A DNA stretch of 64,000 nucleotides from Mobula hypostoma (Eukaryota), in contig NC_086097.1 in NCBI RefSeq assembly GCF_963921235.1, positions 88,724,001-88,788,000 on the forward strand. Reading direction: 5' to 3'. This document shows, one piece after another, positions 12,683-64,000 of the stretch. A program made the position numbers and the translations under genes. The notes under the pieces were generated by a model that saw only the letters and a program-made list of their open reading frames with translations, made no database searches and was not told where the DNA came from. Within the stretch, counting starts at the first letter, position 1. Every line of letters begins with the position of its first letter.

Positions 12683-12720
12683 TAGTCCTGAAGAAGGGTC
12701 TTGGCCCGAAACATCGACTG
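12683..12720 (+). ncRNA. Minimal type-I hammerhead ribozyme-like motif (PLE terminus)
   Basis: tagtc-CTGAAGA-A-GGGT-cttg-GCCC-GAAA-ca-TC-gactg. Confidence 0.65.
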
Positions 12721-13016
12721 TTTATTCATTTCCGTAGGTGCCGCCTGACCTGCTGAGTTCCTCCAGCATTTTCTGTCTGTTGCTTAGAAATGAAACTGCT
12801 GTATTTAGTTTTATATTGGAGGTAAATTTTAACATAAGCCATCTCCTGAAAATCTTGATCAACTCTCTGCCCTGACATATGCTCCCTAATTGGCACTAAG
12901 TCTTAAGGCGTCAGAAATGGGCAACTTCTTTGGATAGTTGGTTCATTTATTTCACACTGGGATCATGGCCAGTTTTCATCAATGGGAATCATATATTCTA
13001 TTTTTATTTTTATTTT

Positions 13017-13194
13017 TGAACTCCCACTGGTTTCCTTGGCTGTGTAAGTCTAGGGAATACACACTCAGGTCCTGCCAAACCCCTGATTGAGACAGCTCAC
13101 GTTCCAAAATACCCGCTACCTCTAACCATAATCCAACACTGCTTCTACAGAAAGACCATTATGTTAGCAGTGAAGCCTTTCCCAGGGTGTTACA
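13017..13194. mobile_element. Internally deleted relative of the 11502-12093 LTR
   Basis: Shares the right end (ccataa...ca(c)tgct...cagaaag.ccatta...ttagcagtgaa.cctt...tgttaca) and a similar left end. Confidence 0.5.
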
Positions 13195-14232: not shown

Positions 14233-14812
14233 TAGGAAGGATGGAGCCAAGAGCTGGACAGTTGATTGGCAAAAGGGATATGAGAGGATCATGGGACAGA
14301 AGGATGGCCTGATGGCATGAACATTGACTTCTCAAACACCTCCAACCTGATGGCATGAACATTGACTTCTCAAACTTCCACTAATGCCCCACCTCCCCCT
14401 CGTACCCCATCCGTTATTTATTTATATACACACATTCTTTTTCTCTCTCTCCTTTTTCTCCCTCTGTCCCTCTGACTATACCCCTTGCCCATCCTCTGGG
14501 TTCCCCGCCCCTTGTCTTTCTCACTAGGCCTCCTGTCCCATGATCCTCTCATATCCCTTTTGCCAATCAACTGTCCAGATCTTGGCTCCATCCCTCCCCC
14601 TCCTGTCTTCTCCTATCATTTTGGATCTCCCCCTCCCCTTCCCACTTTCAAATCTCTTACTAGCTCTTCTTTCAGTTAGTCCTGACGAAGGGTCTTGGCC
14701 CGAAACATTGACTGTACCTCTTCCTAGAGATGCTGCCTGGCCTACTGTGTTCACCAGCAACTTTTATGTGTGTTGCTTGAAATTCCAGCATCTGCAGATT
14801 TCCTCGTGTTCG
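14233..14812 (+). mobile_element. Penelope-like element 3' terminus with a short inverted piece
   Basis: GIY-YIG C-terminal remnant (caacctgatggcatgaacattgacttctc) followed by a pyrimidine-rich tail and hammerhead motif. 14233-14310 is a reverse-complement copy of parts of 14530-14605. Confidence 0.8.
14677..14714 (+). ncRNA. Minimal hammerhead-like motif
   Basis: tagtc-CTGACGA-A-GGGT-cttg-GCCC-GAAA-ca-TT-gactg. Confidence 0.65.
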
Positions 14813-15789
14813 CATTTAACAATACATGTTTAAATTTAGACAAATAGTTCTTAACACACAGAGTATTTCTGATATACGAAAGATTTCCAAATTACAAATG
14901 ATTTATAAACTACAAAGGATTTCCAAGCACAGGTATGAAACTTACAAGCTAACAGAACATACCAATGAGTTGCAGGTAATCACAATGATGTAAATAACTT
15001 AGCTGTAGTTCTCTGGTTTGATGTAGGCCAACTAACATAACTCCATTGTCTTGCGTTTGACTAATGCAAAACAAGAAGTCTCATGGTCACTCTCCTTTGC
15101 AAACCATATCTCTTGGGCAGCCAGCCCCTTCTGTGGGCCAGCAGCCTGTGCTGTGTAAACAATGCTGTCGGCAAAGCTGTGCTTTTAATTTCAAACTGAT
15201 TGCTGGTTGCAACTTACATTAAGAACAGAAGACTGATTCTTGTTTGCAACAAGAAGCTGAACAAGGAATACCCGTTAGAAGTTTAACTTCGTCACAAGCA
15301 ACTCCGATCCTTCAGAAAGGCTATGCTGCTGTGCTCGAAAGCTGAGGTCAGCAATAAGCCTCTCAGGCTCTGGAAAGTGAATATCCATCACAGAGGTGTA
15401 GGTGGTTAATTTGGGGGGAACTAGTTTGCATGATGGAGTGAGCTGCATCCTCAACTCTCTGCAATTTCTTGCAGTCTTGGGCAGAGCAATGGCCATACCA
15501 AGCTGCAATGCATCTGGATGTGGTGTTCTCTATGGTGCATCTAGTTGGGGAGATGCCAAAATTCCATAGCCTCTAAGTAAATAAAGGTACAAATGCTAAG
15601 CACTGCAATTTGTAAGAAAGCATAACAGTCCTGTGGTTAGAAGGTTTGCCATTAGGAATGAACTAACCTTCAACATACCATGTTCATCACAAGTTCTTAT
15701 GTTGATATATTGGTTTCTTTTTCATAAATGGTTACATGTTTGTGGTGATAAATTGAAAGCAAACAGCCAGAAATCATCTTGTCTTTCAG

Positions 15790-15879
15790 GAACACATCTA
15801 TAAGCTGATGAAAAGTGACAGTTATGCTCGTTTTCTGCGTTCCAATGCCTATCAGGAACTCTTACAGGCAAAAAGGAAG
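15790..15879 (+). CDS. RGS6: RGS6 coding exon (end of RGS domain)
   Basis: Acceptor tcttgtctttcAG, donor GTactg. 90 nt, phase 0: [30 protein letters not shown], in frame with the previous exon. Confidence 0.95.
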
Positions 15880-16846
15880 GTACTGTCCAAGAAAGCTGTG
15901 TCTTCTTACATTGGGAAGTGATCATTCTATTCATCATCTGTTAAGCATTTATGTCCGTGCGGGTTGTTCCGAGTTTTAGGCAAAATATTCTGCTTCCATT
16001 TATTAGTAAAGACAAGTGGCAGCAGAATCCGACCACTGCTCACACAATATTGGCTGATGTCAACTTGCACACTCTTTGGATTGCTGTAGGTTAATCTTAG
16101 TGTCCCTGGGAAGCAAGGGAGTGGTCAGTCCAAGGATAACCAGAGAGATTTGTGAGAAAATGTGAACCAATGAAGGTGTCCCATCTGCCTGTCCTGGAAA
16201 AGCAACAAACTTTGAGTCTGTGGAACAGTGTACAGGTGGGATGCATTTCAAGTTGGCTTACAAATGAAGACACTAGGAATTATTAAGATGCTCTTTTCAT
16301 AAATTGTTCTCTCTCAAATCTGCGCCAATTTTTCCTCCCTTTGTATGGGTAGCTGTTTTCAGGAGTGTCAGATGCCTAGCCCAGCTGATTAGTATCCTGT
16401 GAGCTTCATAGTCAGTAATGGATTATTCAAAGGCAGAGATGCCCATACGTAGACAAGTAATGGGACAGCAATCAGGAGCAGAGACCTGGCTGATTTGACA
16501 ATTCTCAACTCACAAAATCTTTTTTTAGTCGTGGTAGTTTCTGGGAACAACAGTCTCTTTCTCAAGTCTTTGATAGATCCTTTCTGTATTGCATGGGGAA
16601 TCAGCTAAAATGACATATAACAATGAGCAAAGCACAAACTGCTGGAAGAACTCAATGGATCAGGCAGCATCAGTGGAGATGAGGGTATGGTCAATTTTTC
16701 AGGTCGAGGCCCTAAATCAAGACGCTGATGTGGATTCGGACATTGGCATTCTCTTGTGTATCTATATAGCAAGAAGCACCTAGTTGTCAGCAGCTTTTAA
16801 GTCAGCACACCACTCCCTTTCAACACAGGAACTAGAGTATACTCTG

Positions 16847-17128: not shown

Positions 17129-17339
17129 ATAGCAGAATTGTTGTCAGAGCAGTAGAGCTTTGCTCAATGTAAGCCATCCACTTCAGTGTATTTTTATCTC
17201 CATTCCACTGTTAAGCTGCCTGTTTAACAATAAGTTAATTTTCCCTCCCTCACTTTAACTCCCACTTGCTGCTAATAAATATGGAGTTTATGTTGTCATT
17301 CTCTCAGCTTTATTTTCTGATTGCTTCCTTCTGCTCTAG

Positions 17340-26746: not shown

Positions 26747-28498
26747 ATTAGATTATCTTAGGCGCAGGGAAGCAGAGATAGAATTTCTGGCTGCCAGTGA
26801 AACTATGTGAATGTTCTGACCTTCTAGATATTGTAATGGGAATTGCTTGTGAATTCACAGAATCAATTTGTATAAAAGAACTTTTTAACCACATGTGACT
26901 GAGAACTATTAGGAGGAGGTTTATAAATTGCAAGCAAGGGAGCAGGTGCTTATATTGAAGGTCCTTTGCCAAGGATGAGGCAGATTGATGTATCTATAGG
27001 CAATAACCAGCTCAGTTTCCCTGAGCTTCACATTCACTTCAGCCAACCATGAGTCTTCCATCTTTCTCATTTTTGCACCTTAGAGTATTTAATGCACCTT
27101 GTGTAAACTATAAAGGTGTTCCAGCATAAGTGTAGTTATGAACTATTCTGACTGATCACAGTGAAACACAGGATGGAAAGTAACGCTATAACAATGCATA
27201 GGTTAGCTTTAAACTCAAGTTTAATTAAAGGAGCCTCATAAGTGTTTTTCAGCTTGGCATACAGAAGCCACATTTCAGTTTAGCTTTATTATCATTACCT
27301 TTTGGATATTTTGGTACAGTTATTGACAGATCGGGATCTAATAACGCCAAAGGAAAAGACACCATAGTACAGACTGTACAACACACTGTTAAGAAAGTAG
27401 CCAGCACCTTCGTAGCTATATCGCCGTACAGGTCAGAAATTTAGATTATGTTCAGACCTAAACTTTGCAAGTTCAGAGGAAAAGCGGCCCAGTGAAAATA
27501 TATGTTGGCCAATATTAGTTCTTCAATTGCCCTTACAGTAGCAGATTTAGCTTGACTAACAGCAAATAGGAGTCCTGCTCTGCAGAAGTTTGCTGTTATG
27601 CTTGCTGTCACCGTATTCCCTACAATTTAAAACAACTGTATTGTCTAAAAAATGCTTTAAGGCTTTCTGATGATGTGCAGGAAGCTAACCATCTCTTTGA
27701 CAGAGATTTCCCTTTGGAAGTCAGGAGCACTGTTCAGAGATTCTGAATTAAATTTACTTATAGTTTTCCCATTGAGGGTGAGTGGCAGGAATATACAGGG
27801 GAACTTGATGAGCATGGGGAGGGAAAAGGTTACAGGGAAATAGAGACAGAAGAGATTGTAACTTCTAATATCCAGAGTAAAAATCCGGAAGAAGTCAGCA
27901 AGTTAGACAGCGTCGGTGGAGACAAAAGGATGGCCAGTCTTTCAGTTCAAGACTGGGAAGTGAGATTGCTCTGAGACTTGGCACAGACCGATGTGCAGGG
28001 TGGCCTCCTTCTATGACATAGATGAACACATGAGAAAAGTAGAGAAAGAGGACTTAATTGGATTATGTTGCTGTTCTATATGCATAGCATCCCACCCCTC
28101 ATCACTTAGCCATCTGTTTCTCTTTTCTTCAACTGTTTATCTAACTTTGCTTTGAATTCTTCTCTGCTTTCATCATCAGACACTTCTTATAGGAACTCAT
28201 TCATATTCCTACCACGTTTTTCTTAGAATCCTGTATAGAATATGTTAGTCACAACTTTGTTCATTTAATCACAACGGGTATCTAAACATACTGCTTCCTG
28301 AAATGGAAAGCAACTGCAGCCATTTCTATCTTAAATATAACCACTCTGGAAGTCCTCCACCCTGAGTGTGGTGTCATCATGGCAAAAGAGGAGGCCATGG
28401 ATTGATATATTGGAATGGGAATGGGGATAGGAATTAAGACAGTTGGCCCCAGGAAATACCGCTTTTGGTGGATGGAGCAAAGGTGCTCGACAATTTTC

Positions 28499-28536
28499 CA
28501 GTCCTGAAGAAGGGTCTCGGCCCGAAACGTCAACTG
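28499..28536 (+). ncRNA. Minimal hammerhead-like motif (core intact)
   Basis: cagtc-CTGAAGA-A-GGGT-ctcg-GCCC-GAAA-cg-TC-aactg; one stem-I mismatch next to the core. Confidence 0.72.
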
Positions 28537-29382
28537 TTTATTCATTTCTATAGATGCTGCCTGACTTGCTGAGTTCCTCCTGCATTTTGTGACCTCCGCC
28601 TTAAAAGTGATAGTTCCTTTTGTCCTCACCTACCACTCCATGAACCTCTGCATCCACCTTCCGCCATTTTCAATGGGATCTTACCACCAAGAGCATCTTT
28701 ACCTTCTCCCTCCCCACCCCCCACTCTCTGTTTTCCCTTTGGGATTGCTCCCTTCATGATTCTCTTGTCCATGTCTCTCTCCCCACTAATCTCCCTCCTG
28801 GCACATACCCCTACAAGCAAAAGAAATGTTACACCTACCCATTCACCTTCTCCCTCACCTCTATTCAGGGTCCCAAGCAGCCCTTCCAGGTGAGGCAACA
28901 ACTTCACCTGTGGATTTGTTGCAATTGTCTGTTGTATCTGGTGCTGCCGATGCAGCAGACTCTACATTGGTGAGATCGCTAAATTGGGGAACTGTTTTGT
29001 TCCTATCCCCATTCCTATTCAGACATGTTGGTCCATGGCTATCTCCTTTGCCTGATGAGGCCCTGCTCAGGGTGGAGGAGCAGCACTTAATATTCCATCA
29101 AAGTAGCCTTCAACCTGATGGTGTGAAGACTGATTTCTCCTTCCAGTAATATTTTTCACTCCCACTTCACTCTTATTCTATTCCCTGCTCTGGCCTCTTA
29201 GCTCTTCTTCTCACCTGCCTATCATCTCCCTGTTCTGTGCTGGTACATTCTCCTCTTTTATTAGATTCCTCCTTCTCCAGCTCTTGACCTTTCTCACCAA
29301 CCTGGCTTCAGCTGTCACCTTCTAGCTAGTCCTCTTTCCCCTCGCCCCACCTTTTCATTCTGGCATCTTCCACCTTCCTTTC

Positions 29383-29420
29383 CAGTCCTGAAGAAGGGTC
29401 TCGGCCCAAAACGTCAACAG
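29383..29420 (+). ncRNA. Hammerhead-like motif, core mutated (GAAA>AAAA)
   Basis: cagtc-CTGAAGA-A-GGGT-ctcg-GCCC-AAAA-cg-TC-aacag. Confidence 0.55.
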
Positions 29421-29504
29421 TTGGTTCACTTTCATAGATGCTGCCTAACCTGCTGAGTTCCTCCAGCATATTGTGTATGTTGCTCTGGATTTCCAGCATC
29501 TGCA

Positions 29505-31560
29505 CAATAGAGTACAGCACAGAAACAGGCCCTTTGGCCTCTCTAGTCAATGCCAAACCATTTAAATAGCTTAGTCTCATCGACCTGCACTCTGATCATT
29601 GCTGTCCATACCCCTGCCATCCATGTACCTATCCAAATTTAAACGTTGAAGTCAAGAATGAATGCACCACTTGCATTGGCAGCTCATTCTGCACTCTCAG
29701 GACCCTCTGACTGAAGATTCCCCTCAAGTTCCCCTTACTGTTTTCACCTTTAACCCTTAAACCATGACCACTAGTTGTAGTAGCACACAACCTCAGTGGA
29801 AAAAGCCTACTTGCATTTACCCTACCTATACCCCTAATTTTGTATACCTCTATCAAAGCTCCCCTCAGTCTTCTGCATTTCAAGAAATAAAGTCCTAACC
29901 TATTCAATCTTTCCTTTTAACTCAAGTCCTCCAGTCCTGGCAACATCCTGTAAATTTTCTCTGTACTCTTTTAACATTATTGACATTTTTCCTGAAGGTA
30001 GGTGACCAAAACTGCACACAATACTCCAAATTAGGCCTCACCAATGTCTTATACAACTTCAACATAACATCCTCTCTCCTGTACTCAATTTTCTGATTTA
30101 TGAAGGTCAATGTGACAGAAGTTTTCTTTAATGACCCTGCCTATGTGTGATGTCACTTTCACTGAATTATGGACCTGTATTCCTAGATCCCTTTGTTCTA
30201 CTGCACTCTTCAGTGTCCTACAGTTCACTGTGTAAGACCTACCTTGGTTAGTCCTACTGAAGTGCAACACCTTGCACTTGTTTGCATTAAATTCCATCTG
30301 CCATTTTTCAGCCTGTTTTTCCAGCTGGTCCAGATCCCACTGCAAGCTGTGACAATCTTCTTCACTGCTCACTGCATTCCCAGTCTTAGTGTTATCTGCA
30401 AATTGGCTGATCCAGTTAATCATATTATCATCCAGATCACTGATATAGATGACAGACAACAATGGACCCAACACCGATCCCTGTGGCACTCCACTAGTCA
30501 CAGACCTCCAGACAGAGAGGTAACCATCTACTACCACTCTCTGGCATCTCCCACAAAGCCAATGTCTAATCCAATTTGCTACCTCATCTTGAATGCCAAG
30601 CACTGAACCTTCTTGACCAACCTCCCATGTGGGACCTTGTCAAATGCCTTGCTAAAGTCAACGTAGACAACGTCCTCTGTCTTGCTTCATCAGCTTTCCG
30701 GGAAACTTCCTTGAAAGCTCAATAAGATGGGTTAGACATGACCTACACACACAAAGACATGCTAACTATCCCAGATCAATCCCAGTCTATCCAAACATTC
30801 ATATATCCAGACCCTTAGAATACCCTCCAATAACTTTCCCACTACTGATGTCAGGATCACTGGCCTATAAATTCCTCGTTTATTTTTAGAACCTTTCTTA
30901 AACGGCGGAACAATATTAGCTATCTTCTACTCCTCCAGTAACTCACCTGTCGCTAAGGATGAGTTGAATATCTCTGCTAGGGCCCTTGCAATTTCTGCAT
31001 TTGCCTCCTACAGGGTTCAAGGGAACACCATGTCAGGTCCTGGGATTTATCCACCCCTATTTGCCTCAAGATAGCAAACATCTCCTCCTCTGTAATCTGT
31101 ATAGGGTCCATGCCCTCACTGCTGCTTTGCCTCACTCTGTGTCTGTCTCCTGAGTAGATACAGATGCAAAAAAAAATGATTTACAACCTCCACATCTCTT
31201 TTGGCTCCATGCATAGATTACCATTCTAATATTCCAGGGGACCAGTTTTGTCCCTTGCAATCCTTTCACTCTTACCATAGTTGTAGAATCCCTTAGGATT
31301 CTCTTTCATCTCATCTGCTAGGGAAAACTTCTTTTATCCTTCCTGATTTACTTCTTAAGTGTTCTCTTGCATTTCTTATACTCTATAAGTACCTCATTTA
31401 TTCCTGTCTGCCGAAACCTGCTATGCATCTCCTTTTTTCCCTTAACCATGGCATCAAAATCTCCTGAAAACCGATATTCCCAAACCTGTTAACTTTACCT
31501 TTTATTCTGACAGGCACATGCAAGCTTTGTACTCTCAAAATTTCGCTTTGAAGGCCTCAC
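29505..31560 (-). mobile_element. Degenerate CR1 LINE
   Basis: ORFs 30085-30603 (SGVPQGSVLGP...FADN), 29922-30110 and 29629-29907. 3' tail at ~29505. Confidence 0.9.
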
Positions 31561-33650: not shown

Positions 33651-35161
33651 CCCTGTTACCCTACCCATAATTCATCTAGTACTCTATACACCAAATAATT
33701 AATACTGAATTACAATGTGTTTTGCCTCTAGAAGTGTTTGCAATAGATAATATGGCAGCATGTCAAAGCAAACCTTTAATATTTGATGCATTTTAGTCCG
33801 AATAAAGCACTACTAAAATGAAGAAAACCAGTTGCTTTAAGTTTCACTGACAGCCTCAAAAGATTTATACCTGAAGGTGTCCTTGGAAACTAAATTGCAG
33901 CAATGTCGTCCTTTGCAGATACATGAAAATAATCCTCATGTAAAAAACATACTATAAGGTTAAGCATGTATATATTTACAACACTTAAATTGCTAGTTTT
34001 TGCGTGTTTATGTCAGTCATTGGGGCAGGAGACAGAATTGTACAGTTCACAACGTAATTAGTAATTATAATTAAAAACATATTAAAGGTTTATTTTATGG
34101 CCAATTGTTGTACCTAATTACGTCTTAGAGATGATGTATCACTGTTTCTTCCACATCTTTTATATTTATATTGTACCACACATCCTGCACCATAACTTGA
34201 AAATGGAAGCACAGGAGCCTGTGCCCTGCCATGAATCCATCTGCGTACCTGACAGCTCTGGCAGCAAGCTATAGACAGTGCTGTGTAACAGGGTCAGGAC
34301 ATTTTTCCACCATCAAAGAGCTTCCTCTGCAAACGCAGATGATCTCAAATCATAAAAACAGCAAGTGATTATATTCTCATGGTTATTTCTAATGGCTGCA
34401 GCAAAATAAATTATGAATGTAGAAAATGGCAAATAATTGGATTAAAGCAGCAAGCTGTTGCAATGTTATGATTGAGATCAGAGACAACGTTGCACTTAGT
34501 GTGATGGCACAGATAGCTACAGAAAATTCATTTTGAAATACTTCGTAAGGTAGCACTTCCAAAGGTAGTCCACTAGTTTTCTTTTTGTTTTGGTGATGCA
34601 ATTTTTCACTCCACACTCTTGCAATTATACTTGTGAAACTCGTAATCAATTAGTAACATGGCACAGTCTGCACACTTAGACAAGTGCTTTTATATCTCCT
34701 TTGCCTTGGTGTCAAATTTTGCCTGCCGATGCTCCTGCCAAGTGCTTTGGAATGTTTTCAAACGTGAATTAATTCTTGTTGTGGCGACTGGCATGCCAGT
34801 CAAGATGGCTTGCAGAGATCTGCACAGGGATCTTGGCAAATCTAGAGAGGGGCTTAAAAGGCTTAAGAAATGGAATGATGCTGATTCACACTCGCAAGTC
34901 AATGCAAATGTCTTGTCCTCAGTCAAAAATAAGCTCAACCTCACTATAGCAATGAATGCCATTTTCCAGATAATACCAGGATATGTTAGAGAAAGGACAT
35001 TAGCCTCATAGCGGACCATTCCAGGCCAGTTATATATACAGGGATAAGAGAAGGCTATTTAACCCTTTCAGCCTGTTTTCACTATAGTATTTGAAAAGTC
35101 CAGTGGTTGTTGGAAAAGAGCCTAACGCATAAGCACTGATATCGCAGAGTGCTCCCTATAA

Positions 35162-44425: not shown

Positions 44426-46117
44426 ATAGAAACATAGAAACATAGAAAATAGGTGCAGGAGTAGGCCATTCGGCCCTTCGAGCCTGCACCGCCATTTATT
44501 ATGATCATGGCTGATCATCCAACTCAGAACCCAGCCTTCCCTCCATACCCCCTGACCCCTGTAGCCACAAGGGCCATATCTAACTTCCTTTTAAACATAG
44601 CTAATGAACTGGCCTCAACAGTTTGCTGTGGCAGAGAATTCCACAGATTCACCACTCTCTGTGTGAAGAAGTTTTTCCTAACCTCGGTCCTAAAAGGCTT
44701 CCCCTCTATCCTCAAACTGTGACCCCTCGTTCTAGCCCTCCCCAACATCGGGAACAATCTTCCTGCATCTAGCCTGTCCAATCCCTTTAGGATCTTATAC
44801 GTTTCAATCAGATCCCCCCTCAATCTTCTAAATTCCAACGAGTACAAGCCCAGTTCATCCAGTCTTTCTTCATATGAAAGACCTGCCATCCCAGGAATCA
44901 ATCTGGTGAACCTTCTTTGTACTCCCTCTATGGCAAAGATGTCTTTCCTCAGATTAGGGGACCAAAACTGCACACAATACTCCAGGTGTGGTCTCACCAA
45001 GGCCTTGTACAACTGCAGTAGTACCTCCCTGCTCCTGTACTCGAATCCTCTCGCTATAAATGCCAGCATACCGTTCGCCTTTTTCACCCCCTGCTGTACC
45101 TGCATGCCCACTTTCAATGACTGGTGTATAATGACACCCAGGTCTCGTTGCACCTCCCCTTTTCCTAATCGGCCACCATTCAGATAATAATCTGTTTTCC
45201 TATTTTTGCCACCAAAGTGGATAACTTCAAATTTATCCACATTAAATTGCATCTGCCATGAGTTTGCCCACTCACCCAACCTATCCAAGTCACCCTGCAT
45301 CCTCTTAGCATCCTCCTCACTGCTAACACTGCCACCCAGCTTCGTGTCATCCGCAAACTTGGAGATGCTGCATTTAATTCCCTCATCCAAGTCATTAATA
45401 TATATTGTAAACAACTGGGGTCCCAGCACTGAGCCTTGCGGTACCCCACTAGTCACCGCCTGCCATTCTGAAAAGGTCCCGTTTATTCCCACTCTTTGCT
45501 TCCTGTCTGCTAACCAATTCTCCACCCACACCAATACCTTACCCCCAATACCGTGTGCTTTAAGTTTGCACACTAATCTCCTATGTGGGACCTTGTCAAA
45601 AGCCTTTTGAAAATCCAAATATACCACATCCACTGGTTCTCCCCTATCCACTCTACTAGTTACATCCTCAAAAAATTCTATGAGATTCGTCAGACATGAT
45701 TTTCCTTTCACAAATCCATGCTGACTTTGTCCGATCATTTCACCGCTTTCCAAATGTGCTGTTATCACATCCTTGATAACTGACTCCAGCAGTTTCCCCA
45801 CCACCGACGTTAGGCTAACCGGCCTATAATTCCCCGGTTTCTCTCTCCCTCCTTTTTTAAAAAGTGGGGTTACATTAGCCACCCTCCAATCCTCAGGAAC
45901 TAGTCCAGAATCTAACGAGTTTTGAAAAATTATCACTAATGCATCCACTATTTCTTGGGCCACTTCCTTAAGCACTCTGGGATGCAGACCATCTGGCCCT
46001 GGGGATTTATCTGCCTTCAATCCCTTCAATTTACCTAACACCACTTCCCTACTAACATGTATTTCGCTCAGTTCCTCCATCTCACTGGACCCTCTGTCCC
46101 TTACTATTTCTGGAAAT
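44426..46117 (-). mobile_element. Young 5'-truncated CR1 LINE with an uninterrupted RT ORF (same family as 35162-36576)
   Basis: Open frame from ~46115 to the stop at 44524. (CATAGAAA)n tail at 44425-44448. Candidate TSD AGTTC at 44421-44425 and 46118-46122. Confidence 0.96.
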
Positions 46118-47580: not shown

Positions 47581-48325
47581 AGCCAGAGTCATTACACAAT
47601 GTCAAACTCCATTAGAAGCAAAAAGTAAGCTTTGCCTAGAAAATGTATATGCCTTTTTTTTGGTGTACTGAGCTGTAAATCTCACCAAATCATTAGCACT
47701 CATTTAATTTCCCTATGAAAATGTAATGAAATTCACAAAAAAGAAATTAAGACGGGGTAGTGGTGCTTTACACAAAGGACATGTGGTAGAACAGAACTTG
47801 TGCAACTCCTGTAAAACACTTAGGTGAACAGCATTTCTGACAAACTGTGGTAAACCAGTCCGTAAAGTGTGTGGCCTTTAACAAAGCCTTACCCGTAGCA
47901 GTCACACAAACCAGAGAAGACAGAAAATTCCATAGTTTTCTGGGAGACTCTGAACATTCTCAACAGCAAAGTAATCTAAGGGAAGAGATGGGACAAAAGG
48001 ACCAAAAGACTGGCTAGACCCCATCAGCAGCTGTCTTCAGGATGAGATATAGGCATGGGGAAACTTTTATTTAGGAGAAAAAGTCCAGGTTGTTGAGACC
48101 AGCTCTAATGAGAACATGTATGCAGCCAATGCCTGCTCACATGTGTAGGAAGGAGCCCTGTTGGCAAATCCTGGCATCTGAGATGCTCTCTCTTCCATAC
48201 AGGCTGCTGGAGGAATTTAACTGGTCAGGCAGTATTTGTGGAGGGAAATGGGCAACCAACTTTTGGAAACATCAACTGTCCATTCCCTTCCACAGATGCT
48301 GCCTGGCTGCTGAGTTCCTTTAAGG

Positions 48326-51010: not shown

Positions 51011-54000
51011 CTTAAATCTGTTTCCACCAGTTATTGATCTTAATGCCTAGGATAAATAAGTCCTTTCTGCTTTCCCTCAATTTTATGTGCTAAATAGAGC
51101 AATCAAGAGTGTTGTGTCTGTACAACTACATATCAATTAAAATAAATGCTTGCATGTGAAATGGCTTTAACTGGTGTACTTACATTACAGCAAGAGAGAG
51201 AGAGAAAGCAATCCACATGTGTACACAACAGATCAGTGCACATACGTAGTGCTAAAGAGAGTCATTGATCTAAAAGAAACAGATCCATACATTACGTTTC
51301 CTCCCCTTTCAAATTAATGTGATAAAAAACTGTATATGTAACAAAACATTCAATTTCCCTTTAACAAGCATATTCAAATTTTCACGGAGTCCACAATTAG
51401 CTTCACTATACAAAAGGTTCAGTCTTTTGAGTGGCACTCTGTTTCTTTCAGGATAGAGCCTTTGGACCTGTGGAGTAGCATCAGGTTTGGCCGGTGTCTT
51501 GTCAAAGACAACGTTCTCAGTTGCTGATATCATATTGTTGTTAGTGACATGATCACCACGGAGAGGTAAGTCCAGTGGCTGTATTGTGTCCGTCTTGTTG
51601 GATGTAGTCAACTCAGGTGTGTTCCTCAGCTGAGCATCCAGCATCCAGTCCACATGTCTGATCTCCAACATCCACTGAGTACATCAGTGGTCCAGTACTT
51701 GTAGCTATCCTACCAGGTGTCCGCTTGTCTTCTCAGTAATCACACACTAGGACTTTCTGGCCAGTCTTGAAGCTCCTTGCTGTTTCACTCGGCAACTGGC
51801 TGAACTGCTTATTCTGCACTTCCCTCTGGAGATCTGGGTTCAAGAGATTTATACGAGATCTCAGATCTGCTCATGAGCAGCATGACAGGTGTTTGACTTG
51901 TTGTCGTATGAACAGAGTTCCAATGCACAAAAAGGAGGGGGTCCACTTTGTGCTGTAGAGAAATGTCTTCCTTGGCCATCACTTTACTGGATTTCTTGAA
52001 GTTTTGGGCAAACCTGTCAGCTAAGCCATTCATTGCTGGGTGGTGAGGAGCTGACTCGAAATGTTTGATGCCATTTTTCTTCATGAACACTGAATTATTC
52101 TGATGTGTATTGTGGTCCACATCACTCACAGTTTGTTCTGGTAAGCTATTTCTGGTGAAGATAGTCCTCAAAGCAGAGAAAGTCCTTACTGAAATGGTTG
52201 ACTTCATTGGTATAACCTCTGGCCACTTCAAATGAGCATCCACAGCAACCAGAAACATGGAATCCATGAATGGCCCAGCAAAGCTAATAGGCGTTCTTTG
52301 CCATGGTGAAGACGGACACTCCTACAGGTGTAGCAGTGCCTGTGGGGGTACATTTTGAACTTCTTGGCATCCTGAACAGTTTTTGTTTAAGTCTTCAATC
52401 TGTCTATCTATTCCCAGCCACCACACCTAACTCCAGGTGAGACTTCATCTTGACTGTGCCCAGGTGTCCTTCACACAGATTCTCTAACACTCTGGTGCAC
52501 AGTTTAGAGGGAACCACAACACAAGATCCCCACATCAAGGTTCTTTGATCTCACTGAGAACTGTGGAAACATAGGATTACCATGAGCTGGCCATCCGTGC
52601 ATGGCGATATCAAAGATTTTTGACAATGTTGGGTCATTCCTTGTTTCTTTTTGTATTTCAGAATTTTTTACTGGCAACTGGTCCACCAATGCAGTGTGGA
52701 ACATCTCTGCTGTGTCACAGAATGAAGACTTCTCTGCTTCAGTTGTTTTCAGTGGAAGACATGACAAGCTGTCAGTGTTGCTGTGTTGTTTGGTACCCTT
52801 GAACTCTATGACATAAGCGTGGGCTCCTAGGAAAAGTTTCTAACGTTACAACAGGGTAACAGACATCACTGGAGTTTCCTTCCTGGGACTGAAAATAGAC
52901 ACAAGGGGCTGGGGATCTGTCACTAGCATAAACTTTTGTCCCTAGTGGTAGTGGTGGAACTTCTTTATTCCCCATAGTAGACTAAAAGTGTCTTGGTCAA
53001 TCTGTGCATAGTTGCATTCTGCATTCATCAGTGATTTTGAAGCAAACGCAATCGGATGTTCAGATCCATCTTTTACAGTATGTGACAAGACAGATCCAAT
53101 GCCCTAAGGGGATGTATTGTATGCAGTCTGATGGGCAGGGATGGGTCATAATGGGTGAGCAGTTCGTCTGATGTTATTAGTCTCTATGTTTCCTTGAATG
53201 CTTTTTCACATCTTTCTGACCATTCCCACTTTGCTGCTGTCTGTAACAGTGCATTCAATGGGTGCAGCACTGCAGCAATATTTGGGAGAAACCAGTGGTA
53301 GTAGTTTACAAGGCCCAAGTATGACCTGAATTGTGACAAATTTTCAGGTTTGGGTGTCTGTAATATTGCTTCAATCTTCTTTTGTGACTTATGTAAGTCA
53401 TGCTTGTCAATGACATGTCCACAATATGAGATTTTATACTTGAAAAACTCACATTTCTCTCTCTTTGCACTCAGACCATACTCACTTAGCCTGGTAAGCA
53501 CTTTACCAAGGTTCTTCAGGGGCTCTTCATCATTTTTCCCAGTCACGATGACATCATCAAGGTAACATTGTGTTCCTGGGATATCTTGGAGCACTTGGTC
53601 GATTGTGCTTTGCCAGTCTCTAGTTAGTACTTCTTACTGCTGTGTTTGGCCTCCGTAAGTCACATTCACTTTCAGTTTTCCACTAGGAGACACTTTTTCA
53701 CCTGTGTAGGTCTTTAACATCACTGAGGTATTTTCTAATGGTATCTGAGAAAACAGTTTGTTGTAGTCGGCCTCTGGAATCATGCCCAAAACTGGCCCTG
53801 TATTCAGCTCCATTTTCAGTTTTACACTGGACACATCTATTGTGATCCAGATGATTTTGTGATCTGCTTCAGTTATACTATGCAGTTCTAGGCATGACAG
53901 CTCACCTTTGACAGACTCTGTATTGTCTAATTCCATTTCATATTTAGTCACTTTATGCATTTATTTAGTTTTGTGTTTGAAACATTTCACTCTGTGTGGC

Positions 54001-54310
54001 TTTTCTCCTTGGTTGTGCTTTTTGTTTAACTTTCACGCTCTATGACCTTGTCTGTGGCACTTTCTGCAAACTTCTTCTTTGAACCAACAGTCATTTGCAT
54101 CACGGGAGGATTTGCCCCACTGAAAACATTTTTGGATTTTTGCACCATTCAGGACATCTTGTGCATTTCACATTCTAAACTCTATTTCTGTAGTTCTGCT
54201 GTATCCTTTGCTGCAGTCTCTTATGATATTGCAATGGTCAATGCCCATTCTAAGGTTATGTCTCTTCTGACAGTAGTCTCTTCTGAGTGCTTTGACATTA
54301 ATGTCACATA

Positions 54311-54538
54311 CAGGGAGAACGTCAACTCAGACCATGAGAGGCCTGCGTCGAGCATTTTCATGCCTTACAAGGCGCAGATTGGAAGTCTGTGTGGGGCGCC
54401 ACTCCTCGCACAGACTAGAGCAATGTGTGATTAAGTGCCTTGCTCAAGGGCACAAACACGCTACCACGGCTGAGGCTCGAACTAGCAACCTTGAGGTAAC
54501 TAGATGAACACCTTAACCACTTGGCCGCGTGCCCAACA
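54311..54538 (-). mobile_element. tRNA-derived SINE inserted in Gypsy gag
   Basis: Minus strand: A-box CGGCCAAGTGG, B-box GTTCGAGCC, then gtgcccttgagcaaggcacttaa. It interrupts the gag-like DALRDSLV|C motif. Confidence 0.8.
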
Positions 54539-54865
54539 CAAGGCTGTCCCTTAATGCATCAGAAGGTCCACCTCCAAAGTCACAGTACTGGGAAAGTTTG
54601 TGCAGTTCTGCAGTAGATTCAGAAATGCTTTGACTGGTTCCTTTTGTAAAATCTAAATCTCTCAGCTATTACCAGCAGTTTAGGGCTCAAGTGATTTTTT
54701 AAAATTGTAACAATTTTGTCGGACGTCTTGCTTGCTCGCTTTTCAGGAGTTACTAGGTTACATAACAGCTTGTACATTTTAGCACCCATTAAGCTAAAAA
54801 GTATGGTGGCTTTCTTTACCCCATCCACATTGTTCGCATTACAATACAGTTCAACCCTCTCAATA

Positions 54866-56532
54866 CAGGTGTCCCCTGCTTTTCGAACGTTCACTTTACG
54901 AAACCTCGCTGTTACAAAAGACCTACATTAGTTACCTGTTTTCGCTAACAGAAGGTGTTTTCACTGTTATGAAAAAAGCAGCACGCGAAAAAAAGCGCGT
55001 TCCCCGGGCAGCCGCTCTCCCCCAGATTCGGAACTGCATTCTCGCCGGCATTGCTGAAACACGTGCCTGTGAGCATCCGTTAGCAAGATGAGTTCTAAGG
55101 TATCGGAAAAGCCTAAAAGAGCTCATAAGTGTGTTATACTTAGCGTAAAACTAGACATAATTAAGCGTTTCGATCGTGGTGAGCGAAATAAGGACAAAGT
55201 GAGTTTGGCTTGTGGAAGTTGACGAAGATGACGTTGCAGAGGTTTTGGCATCTCATGACCAAGAACTGATAGAAGAAGAGCTGATGCAATTGGAAGAGGA
55301 AAGGATAACAATCAAAACCAAATGCAGTAGTGAATGGACAGAAAGTGAAGTCGTCCAGGAACTGAACATGAAGCAACTGCGTGAGATTTTCGCTGCAATG
55401 ATAAAGTACGACTTTAAATTTGAACGGGTACGTCGGTTTAGGGCATATTTGCAGGATGGTTTGAGTGCTTACAAAGAACTGAATGATAGAAAAATGCATG
55501 AGGCTAGCAGTCAAGCATACTGTCATTTTTCAAGCCTTCCACATCAGCCACAGCAGACGACAAACCTCAACCTTCGCCATCGAGGCAGGCAGACATAGAA
55601 GAAGATGACCTGCCTGCCCTGATCGACGATGAGATGACACCACTTTGCCCCACCACCCCAGTGGTCCCAACCTCCGGGCCACGGACAGATACCGATTCGC
55701 AGAGAATGCAGCGGTAGCCGGGAGGCATCCAGCACATCTTTAAGAAAAAAGCCGAAATAAACAAGCTAATTAATTAGGTGCCGCACAGCACGTAATTGTC
55801 GGCCCAGATCAGAGGCAATTGCCAATTGCGTCGCCGCTGATCTGGGCCGACATTTATGTGCCGGGCGTAATTAACTTGTTTATTTCAGCTTTTTTCTTAA
55901 AGATGTGCTGGGTGCCTCCCGGCTACCGCTGGACCCCTGCACGCTTCGCGGATCGGTATCGGACAGCGGCCTGGAGGGTGGGGGCCACTGCACCACCCCA
56001 ACCTCCAATGACTCAGTCTAACACACCAGCATCAGTGTGCTCGGCACTGTCCCAATTCCGGTAAGTGATACTACACTGTACATACATGATTTCTACTTTA
56101 CATAGGCTATGTATTTTTATGTGTTATTTGGTATGATTCGGCAGCTTCATAGCTTAAAGGTTACTGGAGAGAATGTTCTGCCAAGAGCGCATGCGTGAGC
56201 TTTTCTGCCAAAAGCACTTGCGCTGTGTTTCTGCTGAGAGTGCTTGCGTGAGATTTTCGCTACCGAGAACAGTGCAGGGAATCGTTGTAGAGAAGTATTT
56301 CTAATTTATATAGGCTGTGTATTTATCATACCATTCCTGCTTTTACTATATGTTACTGTTATTTTAGGTTTTATGTGTTAATTGGCATGATTTGGTAGGT
56401 TATTTTTGGGTCTGCGGACGCTCACAAATTTTTGCCATATAAATAAATGGTAATTGCTTCTTCGCTTTATGACATTCCGGCTTACAAACCATTTCATAGG
56501 AACGCTCTACCTTCGGATGGCGGGGAAACCTG
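54866..56532 (+). mobile_element. Non-autonomous Tigger/pogo DNA transposon inserted in Gypsy gag
   Basis: TA TSD at 54864-65 and 56533-34. Imperfect TIRs CAGGTGTCCCC / GGGGAAACCTG. Transposase N-terminus from ATG 55088 (MSSKVSEKPKRAHKCVILSVKLDIIKRFDRGER) is joined to the acidic C-terminus (EVDEDDVAEVLASHDQEL); the DDE core is deleted. Confidence 0.9.
55659..55990. mobile_element. Palindromic hAT-type MITE nested in the Tigger element
   Basis: TIRs CAGTGGTCCC...GGGGCCACTG. Perfect 8-bp TSD CACCACCC at 55651-55658 and 55991-55998. The body is a long imperfect inverted repeat. Confidence 0.88.
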
Positions 56533-57443
56533 TATACGATTCCCGGTCCTCATTAGCTCTATCCAATTCGCCAACTTTCCCAACCGAGGCCACCATCGCA
56601 TTATTTTTACTTCAACTTTGCTAGTCGTGTGTCCTTCACTGTTACTCACGCATCCCTTTGTTAGCGTCCGTGATGATCTTCTCTGCACTGTTTAACTCTT
56701 TCCTCTTGCTGTCTCCCCATGACTGTTGGTGCAGTTGGTGATATTCACTAATTTTCAGGTTGGTACTCGTTGCCAATTTATTGTGGCTGTATAACTACAT
56801 ATCAAATAAAATAAAAGCGCATACTCAGGATGGCTTTAACTAGTGTATTCACATTGCAATGAGAGAAAGAGAGAGCAATATACATGCGTAGATAACAGAT
56901 CAGTGTGCATGCGTAGTGCTAAGGGGAATCATTGCTCTAAAGGAAATAGATCCATAAAGAGCACAAGAACATAAGAACTAGAAGTGGGAGTAGGTAACCT
57001 GACCCTGTACTGCCATACGATAACATCATATCCGATCACCTGTCTCAAACCATCTTCAATTATTATTTCTTTCCTTGTTATTTCTCTGGTACGCAGGGAT
57101 CTATCATTGTCTTTTTTAAGTGAACTGACTGATCAATTCTCTCAATGAAAAGATTTATCCTAACTTCATTTCAAAGTAGCCAACCCCTTATTAAAGTTAC
57201 GTTACTGTGCTACAAAGTTTTGATAGTTCCTGAAAGGATTATGGGAATTAAACTAAAAACAGAATATGATGGAAATATTCAGCAGGTCAGGCAGCGACTG
57301 TTAGAGAGCAACTTAGAATAGATTTGAAGTTAACATTATTTCAATGAAATTGGATTTTATCTAATTTATATTAAGAAACTACAAAGGAACTGCAGATGAC
57401 ATAAAGGTTGGTGGTATTGTGGACAGTTCTGAAGGTTGGCATA

Positions 57444-58007
57444 CACTCAGTGGCTACTTTATTATACATAAAATATGATGTATAATAATACTTTATACAT
57501 AATAAAGTGGCTTCTGAGCGTATTTTTGTGGACCTGCTGCTGTAGCCCATCCACTTCGCTTCAATGTCTGACGTGCTGTGCAAACCACTGTTGTAATGCG
57601 TGGTTATTTGAGATAATGTTGCCTTCCTGTCAGTTTCAACCAGTCTGCCATTCTCCTCTGACCTCTCTCATTAACAAGGCATTTTCACCCACAGAACTGC
57701 CACTCACTGGATTTGACTTTATGTTTTTCACGTCATTCTCTGTAAACTCTAGGGACTGTTGTACGTGAAGATGCCAGGAGGTGAACATTTTCTGAGATAA
57801 TCAAACCACCCTGTCTGGCACCAACAATCATTCCACAATCAAAGTCATTTAGATCACATTTCTTCCCCTTACTGATGTTTGGTGTGAAGAACAAATGAAC
57901 CTCTTGACCATGCCTGCATACTTTTAGGCATTGAGATACTGAGACATAATTGGTTAATTAGATATTTGCATTAACAAGCAGGTATACAGATGTGTATAAT
58001 AAAGTGG
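57444..58007. mobile_element. Tc1-like non-autonomous DNA transposon
   Basis: TA|CACTCAGTGGCTACTTTATTATACA at the left end and partial inverted TGTATAATAAAGTGG at the right end. Confidence 0.65.
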
Positions 58008-58562: not shown

Positions 58563-58588
58563 TAGGAAGCATCTATAGAATTGACTAA

Positions 58589-58627
58589 CAGTCAATGTTT
58601 CGGGCCGAGACTCTTCCTTCAGGACTG
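58589..58627 (-). ncRNA. Degenerate hammerhead-like motif
   Basis: Minus strand: cagtc-CTGAAGG-AAGAGT-ctcg-GCCC-GAAA-ca-TT-gactg. Confidence 0.5.
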
Positions 58628-58805: not shown

Positions 58806-59146
58806 ATGGCTCTTTACGTGAGTTGGCAACAGCACATAACGAACGTTGTGCTCTATGATGACCTACCGATGCTCACCACTAAAATCGAGGCAAGAAGACT
58901 GCAACTAGCTGGGCACTGTCTACGCCACTCCGAGCAACCTGCCAGCCTAGTCATCATATGGGAGCCCAAGCATGGGAGGATGAACCCTGGGCGCCCTCCC
59001 AAGACTATGGTCAACACGCTCCTAGAAGACAGCGGCGCGGCTAATGTAGATGAACTGAACACACCGATGAGGAAGAGGGAGAAGTGGAGAGTTCGTCATC
59101 ATGCCCGACGCCGGCCCCCTAGGCCTGAGTCGGTGTAGTAGTGGTA
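58806..59146 (+). mobile_element. Short RTE/RTE-X-type LINE 3' end
   Basis: Encodes SWQQHITNVVLY...RRLQLAGHCLRH...GRPPKT. (GTA)n tail and perfect 11-bp TSD GGATCCAGGGG at 58795-58805 and 59147-59157. Confidence 0.88.
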
Positions 59147-62100
59147 GGATCCAGGGGGAAGTGATAGGCAGGTGAGAAGAGGTAAAAGGCCAGAGAGAGG
59201 AATAGAGTAAGAGGGGATGGGGAGGAAAAAAAATAATTATCAGAAGGAGAAATCAATATTCATACTATCAGGTTGGAAGCTATCCAGACGGAATATAAGG
59301 TGTTGCTCCTCCATCCTGAGGGTGGCCTCATCTTGGCATTAGAGGAGGCCGTGGACTGATATGTCAGAACAGGAATGGGAATGGGAATTAAAATGTTTGA
59401 CCACCCGAAGTTCTGCTTTTGGCAGGTGGAGCAGAGGTGCTTGACGATGCGGCCCCCCAACTTACGACCGGTCTTACTAATGTAGAGGAGGCCACATCAG
59501 GAGCATTGGACACAACAGACGATCCCAGCAGATTCGCAGGTGAAGTGCAGGCTCACTTGGAAAGGCGGTTTGAAGCCCTGAATGGAGTTGTATGAGCTGG
59601 GGTATTACTTAGGTCGCTTGCCGGGTTAAATGCCAGGAGGGAGATTAGTTGGGAAGGACAAATGGACCGGGGAATCGCAGAGGGAGAGGTCCCTGTGGAA
59701 AGCGGAAGGTGGGTGGTAAAGATAAGTTTAGTGGTAGGATGCCTTTGGAGATAGCGGAAGTTGCGGAGGAACATGTGTCGATGTGGAGGCTCTTGGGGTG
59801 GTGGGTAAGGACAAGAGGAACTCCGTCACTGTTAAGGCAGCGGAAAAATGGGGTGAATGTGCACATTTGAAAAATGGAGGAGATGCGGGAGAGGGCAGCA
59901 TCAACAGTGGAGGGAGGGAAACCCCTTTCTTTGAAGGAGGAAGACACCTCTGATGTCCTGGTAAGGAAAACTCATCCTGAGGATAAATGCAACAGAAGCA
60001 AAGGAACTGAGAAAAGGGAATAACATTTTTTACAGGAGATACGGTGGGAAGAGGTACAGTCAAGATAACCATAGGAGTCAGTAGGTGACTCTGGTTAGAC
60101 CCATAGAGTATTGCTTTTAGTTCTGCTTGCCTCATATAGGAAGGATGTGGAAGTTTCAGAGGGGTGCGGAGGAGATTTTTGTTTTAGGTTTAATACCAGC
60201 ATTTGTTGTTCTGCAGCAGCAGTGCATTGCAATACATAATAAAAATCTATAAATTACAAAAAGAAATATGTATAAAAAAATAAATTAAATAAGCATGAGG
60301 GGCATTTACGAGTCCCTTAGATAGGCACATGGGTGAATGAAAAATGAAGGGTTATGTGGGAGGAAAGGGTTAGGTTGATCTTGTTGTATATTAAAAGATT
60401 TTGGGCTGAAAGGTGTGGTCTGTACAATGCTGTACTGTTTGATTTTCCATGTAGGGATTATCCTGCAGGTTGCCAACATGGGGACATTGAGAAGAAAATC
60501 TGCAGGAATATTGCCAAAACGGTGCAAAAAAAAGGAAGGAGCAATTAAATGGGAATTCGTGCTAAATAAGACAACAGAAATATTGTCCATGCCCACAAAG
60601 CGACAGCAGCATTTATCTATAGTTAGTTATGAGGAAATGGGGAATCCTTATTTAGTAGTTAATTAGACATTCTGCAGTAACAATTCTACAAGTTTGGCAA
60701 AAAGCTTGCTGGTGCATGACAAGTTAAGATACGCATAGATTTCTGTAAAATGACAGCAGATCTGTAGAACACCCTTTGCTAGAGGCACTCTCATCATATT
60801 GCAGAGAGGTGGCCAAGCCTATTGGCAGTGTATGGGGCCAGCTGAAGACCAGAGCCAGAGATAGCCCTGGAAGGCCTCCAGGAGTATTCTGAGGCCTAAT
60901 TAGAATAGCTAAGGATGGGACCCAGCTGTGAAACCACCAGAGTATGGAATTCTCACAATTGCTGAACATGTAGCGTTACTAATGTCAGAAAGGACCAATC
61001 ACAAGCTCAATGATTTCCTCCCATATTCCAAGGATATACCGGTTAGTATGTCAATAAATTGTCCAGTGATTAGGCTAGGGTTAAATAGTGGGGTTGCTGG
61101 GTAGTGTGGCTCATTGGGTTGGAAGGGCCTGTTCTGCCCTGTATCACTAAATAAGTAATAAATATAAATAAACAAACTTTCCCCCATATTGAATGGGTTA
61201 CTATACCTTATTCCGCAGAACGCTGTGCTTTGTAAAATGACAGAGTATGTGTGGACAAAACCTCATAAAATGAACCGCTCCCTCTCATTTGCAAGTGTAA
61301 AATCAACTGAAAGAAATGGTCTTTTGTTTGATCTCAGGAGCAGATAGTATGACTGATTATCCACACCACACCAGTCAGTGGTAAATATAGAGCGGATGGC
61401 AATAATATAAGGGATGGATAAGGTGAGAAGTTTGACAATCTTGTTCTGAGAACACCCTTGGTCAGTACATATCAAGACCAACAAGTAAGGCAAAATCCTC
61501 AGATCTGTTATGATAATTGAGCCAGATCATGTCGGGAAAGTATCAATCAAAGCACATTGAGGAAACAGAGATCATAATATTATTAAGGTTAAAATGGAAG
61601 ATGTATGCTGAAAATAATTGATTGGCGAAGAGTTCATTTCAATGAGAACAGATCTGATTTGGATAAACTGGAACCCAATTTTGGCAAGTAAACTGTAATT
61701 CAAGTAGATCTGCATCAGCTAGTGACTAGGTATATTCCCATGAAGGAAAGGGTGGGGCAATTAATGCCAGATTCCTTGGAGAACAAAGAGAAAGAGAAAA
61801 AAAAACCACAGAACTTCAAAAAAGAGCGTAGGACAGAAGCCAGAAGTTTAGGACAGAAGTTATTAACACAGAGGCTGAGAATAGACTGGCAACCAACATG
61901 AAAATATTCAATATGAATGTGAACAGGAAAAGGGACGGGGGGTGGAATCAAAGACCGAAAGTGTACTTACAGAGATGGAAGACATAATGGAGATCTGAAG
62001 TGAATCTTCACCAAGGAGGGAGGTGTTGCTGGAGTCACAGCAAAGGGTGGTGTACTGTCATTCTGCTAAGACTGAATAAGGCAAAAGTACATAAAGTCGT

Positions 62101-62324
62101 CCAAAGGGAATTCAAGAAACCCTGTCCATAATCTTCCTAACAGTTTCTAATTCAACTGTGGCACTTCATGACTGAAATCTGGCTTTTGTAATGTGGGATC
62201 TCTGCCATCAACTAGAAAGGTTAAGTTCCTAGACAAACATGGTAGCTCATGCTTCAGTCTTTACACTTATAAGCTGGGTCTAAGCTGCATTGGCAATAGG
62301 AAGGAATCTTTTTAAAGCTAAAGC

Positions 62325-64000
62325 AAGATGCTGGAAATCAAAGTAATGCTCACAAAATGCTGGAGGAACTTGGCAAGCCAGGCAGCATCTATGGAAAAGA
62401 TAAACATTTGACGTTTTGGTCTGAGACCCTTCATCAGGACTGAGAAAAAGAGATGAGGTCAGAGTAAGAAAGTGGGGGGAGGGGAGGAAGGTACTTCTTT
62501 AAGATGATAGGTGAAACCGGGAGGGGGGGTAGTGAAGTGAAGAGCTTGGAAGTTGATTGGTGAAAAAGGTAAAGGCTTGGAGGAGGGAGAATCTGATAGG
62601 AGAGGACAGAAGGCCATCCAAGAAAGGGAAAGGGGGAGGAGCACCGGAGGGAGGTGATGGGCAGACAAGGAGATAAGGTGAGAGAGGGCAAAGGGAATGG
62701 GGAATGGTGAAAGAAAAGGGAGGAGGGAAATTACTGGAAATTTGAGAAATCAGTTTTCATGCCATCAGGTTGGAGGCTACCCAGACAGAACATAAAGTGT
62801 TGCTTCTCCAGATTGAGTGTGGCCTTATCATGGCATAAAGAAGGCCATGGACTGACAAGTTTAACTGGTAATGGGAAGTAGAATTGAAATGGCTGACCCT
62901 GTTTTTTCTGGCTTGGAAAAGCAGTCTCCCCATCTATGTCGGGTCTCACCAATATACAGGAGGCCACACCAGGAGCACCAGATACCCCAAAATACACACA
63001 GCTGAAGTGTTGCCTCATCCGGAAGGACTGTTTGGAGCCCTGGACGGCAGTGAGGGAGGAGGTGTAGGGGCTGGCGTGGCACTTGCTCAGCTTGCAAGGA
63101 TAAGTACCAGGAGGGAAATCAGTGGGGAAGGACGTATGGACAAGGGAGTCACATAGGGATGGATCCTTGTAGAAAGCAGGAAGTGGAGGGAGGGAAAGAT
63201 GTGCGTGGTGGTGGGATCCCATTGGAGATGGTGGCTTACAGAAAATTATGTGCTGAACATTGAGGCTGGTGGGTGGACAAGAGGAACCCTATTCCTGGTG
63301 TGGCGGTGGGAGTATGGGATGAGGGCAGACATGCATGAAATAAAAGAGATGCGGGTGAAGGCATTGTTGAATGTGGAGGAAGGAAAGCCCCTTTCTTTGA
63401 AGAAGGAGGACATCTCCTTCGTTCTGGAATAAAAAGCCTCCTCCTGAGAGCAGATGTGGTGGAGGCAGAGGATCTGAGGGAAGGGACTGGCATTTTTACA
63501 AGAGACAGGGTGCGACAGGTAGCTGTGAGAATCAGTAGGTTTATAAAAGACATCAGTGGATTAACTGTCTCCAGAGATAGAGACACAGAACGAGAAAAGG
63601 GAGGGAGGTGTTAGAAATAGACCGGGTAAATTTGAGGGCAGGGTGGAAGTTGGAGGCAATGTGGATGAAATCGATGAGCTCAGCATGGGTGCAGGAAGCA
63701 GCACCAGTGTAGTCATTAGAGTAGCACAGGAAAAGTTGGGGAGTGACACCAGTGTAGGCTTAGAATATGGACTGTTCCACATAGCCGACAAAAAGGCAGG
63801 CAGAGCTGGGACCCATGCAAGTTCCCATGGCGACACCTTTTGTTTGAGGGAAGTGGGAGGAGCCAAAGGAGAAATTATTGAGAGCGAGGACAAGTTCCGC
63901 TTGATGGAGGAGAGTGATAGCAGAGGGGAACTGGTTGCATCAGGTGTCCAGAAAGAAGCGAAGACCTTTGAGGCTTCCTGATGGGGAATGGAGGTGTATA
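62325..64000 (-). mobile_element. Penelope-like element (RT + GIY-YIG, frameshifted), running off the window
   Basis: Minus strand KGVAMGTCMGPS.ACLFVGYVE (RT), SNFHPALKFT, WCSWCGLLYIGETRHRWGD (GIY-YIG), and C-terminus LGSLQPDGMKTDFSNFQ* at 62731. Confidence 0.92.
62405..62442 (-). ncRNA. Hammerhead-like motif, core mutated
   Basis: Minus strand: cagtc-CTGATGA-A-GGGT-ctca-GACC-AAAA-cg-TC-aaatg. Confidence 0.5.

Follow-up and report, generated by a model that had tools for sequence, protein, structure and literature searches.

What is the short hammerhead ribozyme (HHR)-like motif that recurs on both strands of a ray genome, which element brought it there, and does it still cut? We addressed this question in 64,000 nt of Mobula hypostoma DNA (contig NC_086097.1, positions 88,724,001 to 88,788,000), hereafter the window, in which all coordinates are counted from the first nucleotide. 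With high confidence, we read the motifs as minimal type-I HHRs (min-HHRs) located in the pseudo-long terminal repeat (pLTR) of a very abundant, probably Neptune-type, endonuclease-positive (EN+) Penelope-like element (PLE) of rays, represented in the window by dead insertions only.

A preliminary description of this DNA had placed seven motifs in the window, and 7/7 were present, each on the strand it had named. The best kept (28499-28536, +) has an intact core, stem II and palindrome, with 1.1 G>A producing a C.A mismatch beside the cut site, and is the only one of the seven that retains both core and palindrome. The core is also intact at 12683-12720 (+), together with stem I, and at 14677-14714 (+), where position 17 is U; in both, 16.2 G>A breaks the palindrome. 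The copy at 29383-29420 (+), with a tail to about 29505, carries G12A and two stem I mismatches, and that at 62405-62442 (−) carries G12A with mismatches in stems I and II. A stem II mismatch is combined with 11.1 and 15.2 C>T at 40939-40976 (+), while the 39-nt copy at 58589-58627 (−) has one base inserted in the CUGANGA box and has lost the palindrome via 16.2 G>A. Three more decayed copies, announced by the same description, exist as well, two on the − and one on the + strand: a heavily decayed HHR with C3, G5, G8 and G12 changed but a well-kept tail (8603-8640, −), an HHR-like relic followed by the tail (about 16688-16725, −), and a decayed variant with a different stem II and loop (about 38544-38582, +). 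With a profile built from the seven copies, the family count in the window rose to 16 pieces (7 on +, 9 on −), several of which comprise only the part 3' of the motif.

The consensus proposed earlier is the column majority of the seven copies (N7 being A in five, C in one and T in one), and, as had been said, no copy equals it in full (0/7). In this majority, the CUGANGA and GAAA boxes enclose a stem II that has G10.1-C11.1, and 4/7 copies pass with exact boxes. Stem I, of 5 bp, closes a type I fold with a UH cut site; helix III is absent, and the palindromic 15.2-16.2, CG in the majority, is kept in 3/7 copies, the other 4/7 departing from it by CpG transitions. Cervera and De la Pena (2014, PMC4209133) give a consensus for PLE min-HHRs consisting of a U-rich flank, CUGANGAH, a G...C stem II, GAAA, a palindrome and UH, which, compared at the sequence level, covers the ray motif fully. 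A relaxed min-HHR descriptor requiring exact GAAA gave 4 matches in the window against a mean of 0.09 and a maximum of 1 in 200 dinucleotide shuffles, and 6 matches with one GAAA mismatch allowed (shuffle mean 1.24, maximum 4); the copy at 58589-58627 fails both versions. Rfam at E ≤ 5 returned 10 weak matches in the window and no hammerhead.

The PLE origin suggested in the preliminary description held up: reverse transcriptase (RT)/GIY-YIG relics lie upstream of 5/7 motifs, and the motif matches the consensus in the literature. These five follow the end of a PLE open reading frame (ORF) and a pyrimidine-rich 3' untranslated region (UTR), while the other two are pieces of about 100 nt. The element thus reads, in order, RT/GIY-YIG ORF, stop, pyrimidine-rich 3' UTR, HHR and a tail of 60-110 nt, and the stretch from ORF end through 3' UTR and HHR to tail lies at 14331-14815 (+). 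The longest ORF relic (62734-63972, −), which reaches the window edge, runs from the RT core to the GIY-YIG end with stops and frameshifts, in the order expected of RT followed by a C-terminal GIY-YIG in one ORF; a second, frameshifted relic with RT end, zinc linker and GIY-YIG lies at 28592-29149 (+), and a third upstream of the 58627 motif at 59252-60085 (−). The main relic pieces share 44-80% identity with ray PLE proteins. Of 34 candidates, 21 proved to be relatives of a 104-aa piece of the longest relic; the seven best were from the rays Mobula and Hypanus (65-76% identity) and the next from bamboo shark. The homologue P0001 has YIDD, a C-x4-C-x2-C linker and a GIY-YIG match just under the Pfam cut-off, and P0008, P0009 and P0014 match RVT_1, whereas 0/9 window fragments searched alone against Pfam returned a relevant family. 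No relative of P0001 was found in viral contigs. A CX2-5CxxC zinc linker between RT and EN, described as marking the Neptune and Nematis clades (10.1101/2021.04.23.441226), is intact in ray homologues such as P0001-P0004 and decayed in the window relics, and on these residues the family is probably Neptune-type.

The insertions show 5' truncation, and inversions of the type known from PLEs occur at 14235, 28352, 40411 and about 48210. They comprise an inverted copy at 14235-14303 that is 96% like 14529-14597, an inverted GIY-YIG C-terminal piece found by tblastn (28352-28497, −) back to back with the 28499 unit, and an inverted endonuclease piece representing a 5' inversion of the 40939 copy (40411-40599, −); at 48208-48319, two tail pieces of the family abut, one inverted relative to the other. 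About 350 nt of foreign sequence (about 58810-59160), flanked by a short direct repeat and apparently the 3' end of another retroelement, interrupts the 3' UTR of the 58627 copy.

The family is abundant well beyond this window. Contigs aligning to it numbered 99,538, 91,175 and 80,158 in three large public runs carrying three organism labels, and 4,905 in a small run, totals that are not a copy number. If the rate of 4 descriptor matches in 64 kb held throughout run X1, its 2.69 Gb of contigs would contain about 170,000 (Poisson 46,000-430,000), an extrapolation from one window. The large reservoir of ribozyme-derived sequence that the preliminary description had envisaged is therefore real as sequence, but the part of it in the window is made up of damaged and scattered monomers, and copies by the thousand had already been reported for coelacanth (about 4,000) and Xenopus (about 9,000) with a different descriptor (PMC4209133). 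By the one-window extrapolation, the density here looks at least several times those counts. A whale shark preprint describes PLEs as expanded in introns. The motif patterns gave 0 and 0 matches in prokaryote genomes and viral contigs; loci found with a tail-only pattern in viral (1) and metagenome (6) contigs were rejected as short chance matches without flanking similarity.

How these copies changed bears on whether they are still ribozymes. The seven depart from their majority by 22 substitutions outside N7 and one insertion. The motif holds four CpGs, in loop 2, at 11.1-G12, at 15.2-16.2 and at 17-1.1, and changes affected 15/56 CpG cells as compared to 7/203 non-CpG cells with N7 excluded (Fisher p = 1e-6), bearing out the CpG-type decay noted earlier. 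Non-CpG core changes were 0/77, a figure biased by the fact that these copies were chosen for an intact box. In six copies recognised instead from their upstream UTR, they were 3/66, all in the 8603-8640 copy, as compared to 59/217 changes in the upstream and linker flanks of the same copies (p = 3e-5). Variation across the family was assessed in contigs of four public runs aligned to 29160-29540 at 80% likeness, with letter shares that are depth-weighted and lean toward the reference. Among the rows listed, N7 was C in 22-44% and T in 37-41%, the remainder being mainly the reference A; position 12 was G in the majority (57-79%), and CpG changes at 11.1, 15.2 and 16.2 ranged from 8 to 53%. In run X16, for which all A/T changes above 8% were covered, none (0) fell on the eight core A/U positions. 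Such a pattern suggests that the ribozyme is under selection in active source elements rather than in inserted copies. Hints of stem II variation, namely a U.G to U-A change in the loose-end consensus of one run and the decayed 38544 variant, were too few to count.

The ends of the insertions are informative about the RNA that was copied. The clearest case is a 106-nt insertion of HHR and tail alone (12678-12783, +), which starts 5 nt before stem I and 38 nt before the cut, ends 68 nt past the cut, and is bounded by a 12-bp target-site duplication (12666-12677 and 12784-12795), the one convincing duplication in a search around nine copies. The short unit holding the best-kept HHR (28495-28591, +) starts about 4 nt before stem I. 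Past the cut site, the 3' ends form two groups, one at 61-69 nt and the other at about 90-110 nt; loose ends at 29504/29508 were rejected as 3' ends, with family sequence running on for 15-20 nt. Judged by eye, 0/16 family pieces start at the cut site. For copies that span this site, the source was either uncut RNA or re-ligated circles, and circles formed by cutting and re-ligation have been put forward as a model for such PLE copies (PMC4209133).

These observations can be assembled into a life cycle for the element. Min-HHRs without helix III are described as cutting weakly, as dimers formed through the palindrome (PMC4209133; review PMC6765202); in the literature, two copies pair via ACGU and swap stem I strands, and one core cuts the other after GUC, such ribozymes being slow by themselves. 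Given that helix III is missing here, the ray motif would be a dimer-only design. A transcript of an active tandem element would contain two pLTR copies, which may dimerise and cut the RNA down to unit length. Reverse transcription would set in within the RNA, a short way 3' of the motif; the motif would thus be copied among the first sequences and almost every insertion, however short, would carry it, which would account for the density observed. In the Anolis element PAc, reverse transcription is reported to start inside the RNA at +111-118 and the cut to lie at +26 (PMC11167929), a computed distance of 85-92 nt that is similar in scale to the 3' ends in the window. Short units starting 4-5 nt before stem I could reflect run-off at the RNA 5' end after priming in the first pLTR, as two clear cases suggest. 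An inserted copy would then be a lone monomer, and, with its four CpGs touching core, palindrome and cut site, methylation-driven decay would disable it fast. The window copies are probably inert relics.

Several results weigh against parts of this account. The window contains no full-length or young element, and the only hint of a two-pLTR arrangement is the pair 28499/29383, which are 89% alike and lie 884 nt from each other with an ORF relic between them; they could be two insertions. Although the core has changed less than the loose flanks, its advantage over the tail block is not clear (3/66 vs 13/96, p = 0.07), and single copies do decay. In a nearest-neighbour folding model, which leaves out tertiary contacts, the type I fold was the predicted minimum for the majority and for 2/6 copies folded (the 58589-58627 copy being left out), and the predicted energy of the active dimer ranged from −13.3 (28499) to +12.9 kcal/mol among these six. 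For the majority it was −19.9 kcal/mol, no better than two monomers (2 × −10.5), and it was outdone by a competing stem-II-swapped duplex at −29.3 kcal/mol. Near-palindromes are also formed by stem II with its loop and by the six bases surrounding the cut, so that the model favours an inactive duplex over the active dimer. Such a weak predicted dimer would fit the low activity reported for the min-HHR class. Finally, HHR catalytic mutants in Anolis left in vitro insertion unaffected, and no RNA-seq ends are reported at the Anolis cut site (PMC11167929).

The alternative that best survives is that active elements retain the motif as a folded signal for protein binding or priming and make no use of the cut. 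The Anolis mutants, an uncut RNA as the main Anolis template (PMC11167929), Naiad PLEs described as thriving without HHRs, and the lack of pieces beginning at the cut site would all agree with it. On the other hand, it is the catalytic positions that stay fixed and N7 that varies, a pattern to be expected if chemistry is selected for, and copies across the site could derive from cut and re-ligated circles in the published model (PMC4209133). We consider a signal without cutting rather unlikely, if not to be neglected. Dated copies by the tens of thousands could reveal where the PLE transcript starts, where reverse transcription starts and whether some insertions begin at the cut site; the last would bear on whether PLE hammerheads cut in vivo.

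It is less likely again that the short HHR-plus-tail units form a separate non-autonomous family, similar to a short interspersed nuclear element or a retrozyme, moved by the PLE protein. The clean 106-nt unit with its target-site duplication and the similar start of the 28499 unit would agree with such a family, as would a more than 20-fold rise in summed contig depth between 29342 and 29393, and PLE-derived retrozymes are reported in one chondrichthyan (10.64898/2026.07.22.740005). However, this depth step could also reflect subfamilies with other UTRs, 6/8 clear copies have upstream UTR or ORF, no tandem array of the unit appeared (0/11 tandem-repeat rows), and short copies would also result where a normal PLE transcript is primed internally close to its 5' end. 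Truncated PLE copies are the more probable source of the short units.

The host context raises the possibility of a role outside the element. The window is CpG-depleted animal DNA (CpG observed/expected 0.27) with many relics of long interspersed nuclear elements (LINEs); a host exon at 15790-15879 (+), with AG/GT borders, encodes an RGS domain's end, which matches RGS6 best and RGS7 next. The two + copies upstream of it (12683 and 14677) are probably intronic and sense. In a far-reaching scenario, the ray PLE transcript has its 5' end a few bases ahead of stem I, internal priming at the first pLTR yields standard ribozyme-plus-tail inserts of ~100 nt, on the order of 10^5 near-complete ribozyme halves per genome, and some intronic ones, paired mutually or with PLE transcripts, cut host pre-mRNA with the help of the PLE protein; as a whole, we regard this as very improbable. 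Domestication of one or more window copies, cutting the RGS6-like pre-mRNA, is more improbable still: 12683 and 14677 are sense to the exon, 2 kb apart and have kept their catalytic boxes, but both are without the palindrome, helix III of their heterodimer has two broken pairs, strand bias is absent (7 vs 9 among the 16 pieces), and the decay is CpG-type and also reaches G12. Chance resemblance to a hammerhead, for which the shortness of the motif and the Rfam result could be cited, is as good as refuted by the shuffle test, the match to the published consensus and the PLE context.

Further features of the window concern splicing signals and other repeats. A pyrimidine tract ending in CAG (29360-29385, +) shares bases with the 5' strand of stem I, and another, ending in AG (29420-29437, +), lies about 20 nt past the cut; both recur in other copies and, by their letters, look like splice acceptors. 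In the D. virilis Penelope, an intron is described as ending at the 5' end of helix I (PMC4209133). Two young RT-coding LINE pieces (35157-36580, +, and 44442-45859, −) are 97.7% identical, with open frames of 452 and 562 aa. We take this pair to be CR1-like. A 39-nt minisatellite of about 20 copies, open in several frames, occupies 6738-7492. Decayed LTR-retrotransposon-like gag/pol fragments, identified by eye from translations, lie at 51300-54930 (−). Short perfect-looking hairpins at 55771-55873 and 57439-57525, with weak Rfam microRNA matches far below cut-offs, are probably inverted repeats resembling miniature inverted-repeat transposable elements.

Compared with known systems, the ray motif agrees most closely with metazoan PLE min-HHRs, as described in PMC4209133, in its type I fold, CUGANGA box with unpaired base, G10.1-C11.1, GAAA, palindromic 15.2-16.2, missing helix III and U-rich 5' flank, and in occurring mostly as single dispersed copies from truncated PLEs. 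The unpaired base between positions 9 and 10.1, which is A in 7/7 copies, had been likened in the preliminary description to the extra A of a viroid hammerhead. Its presence stands, but it is no oddity that calls for a viroid precedent, since an unpaired base at this place is one of four hallmarks listed for PLE min-HHRs (PMC4209133); the CChMVd plus hammerhead is credited with an "extra A" in a figure legend that states no position (PMC3705267). The ray stem II, of 4 bp, is shorter than the 5-7 bp of the vertebrate min-HHR rows compared (PMC4209133). Min-HHRs are described in Xena, Poseidon and Neptune elements of fishes; no cartilaginous fish is among the alignment rows compared, and "shark", "skate", "Callorhinchus" and "Leucoraja" are absent from two supplement files of the same paper (PMC4209133).

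A functional parallel is the Anolis Poseidon element PAc (Frangieh et al. 2024, PMC11167929), in which the HHR likewise lies near the pLTR/ORF junction, reverse transcription starts shortly past the cut, and two 3' end points define a tail. PAc belongs to the Poseidon clade and has a purified, active protein, and its ribozyme is reported to cut only with that protein, whereas the ray element has a Neptune/Nematis-type zinc linker and is present in the window as fragments. Non-LTR retrozymes likewise have a type I HHR derived from PLE pLTRs, but they are tandem units each with an HHR (10.64898/2026.07.22.740005), whereas the ray copies are dispersed: the 11 tandem-repeat rows contain no HHR-bearing array, and the closest copies are 884 nt apart. 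Searching titles and abstracts, we found no paper that describes the family from sharks or from rays. Lunse, Weinberg and Breaker (RNA Biol) have reportedly treated small PLE-associated hammerheads that cleave as dimers, by title the same class and the same mechanism. Their paper, one supplement file of the 2014 paper and the bioRxiv supplements may include the ray family. The PLE family is thus a new ray lineage example of the class described in 2014, with a copy number that is suggested to be unusually high for PLE min-HHRs.

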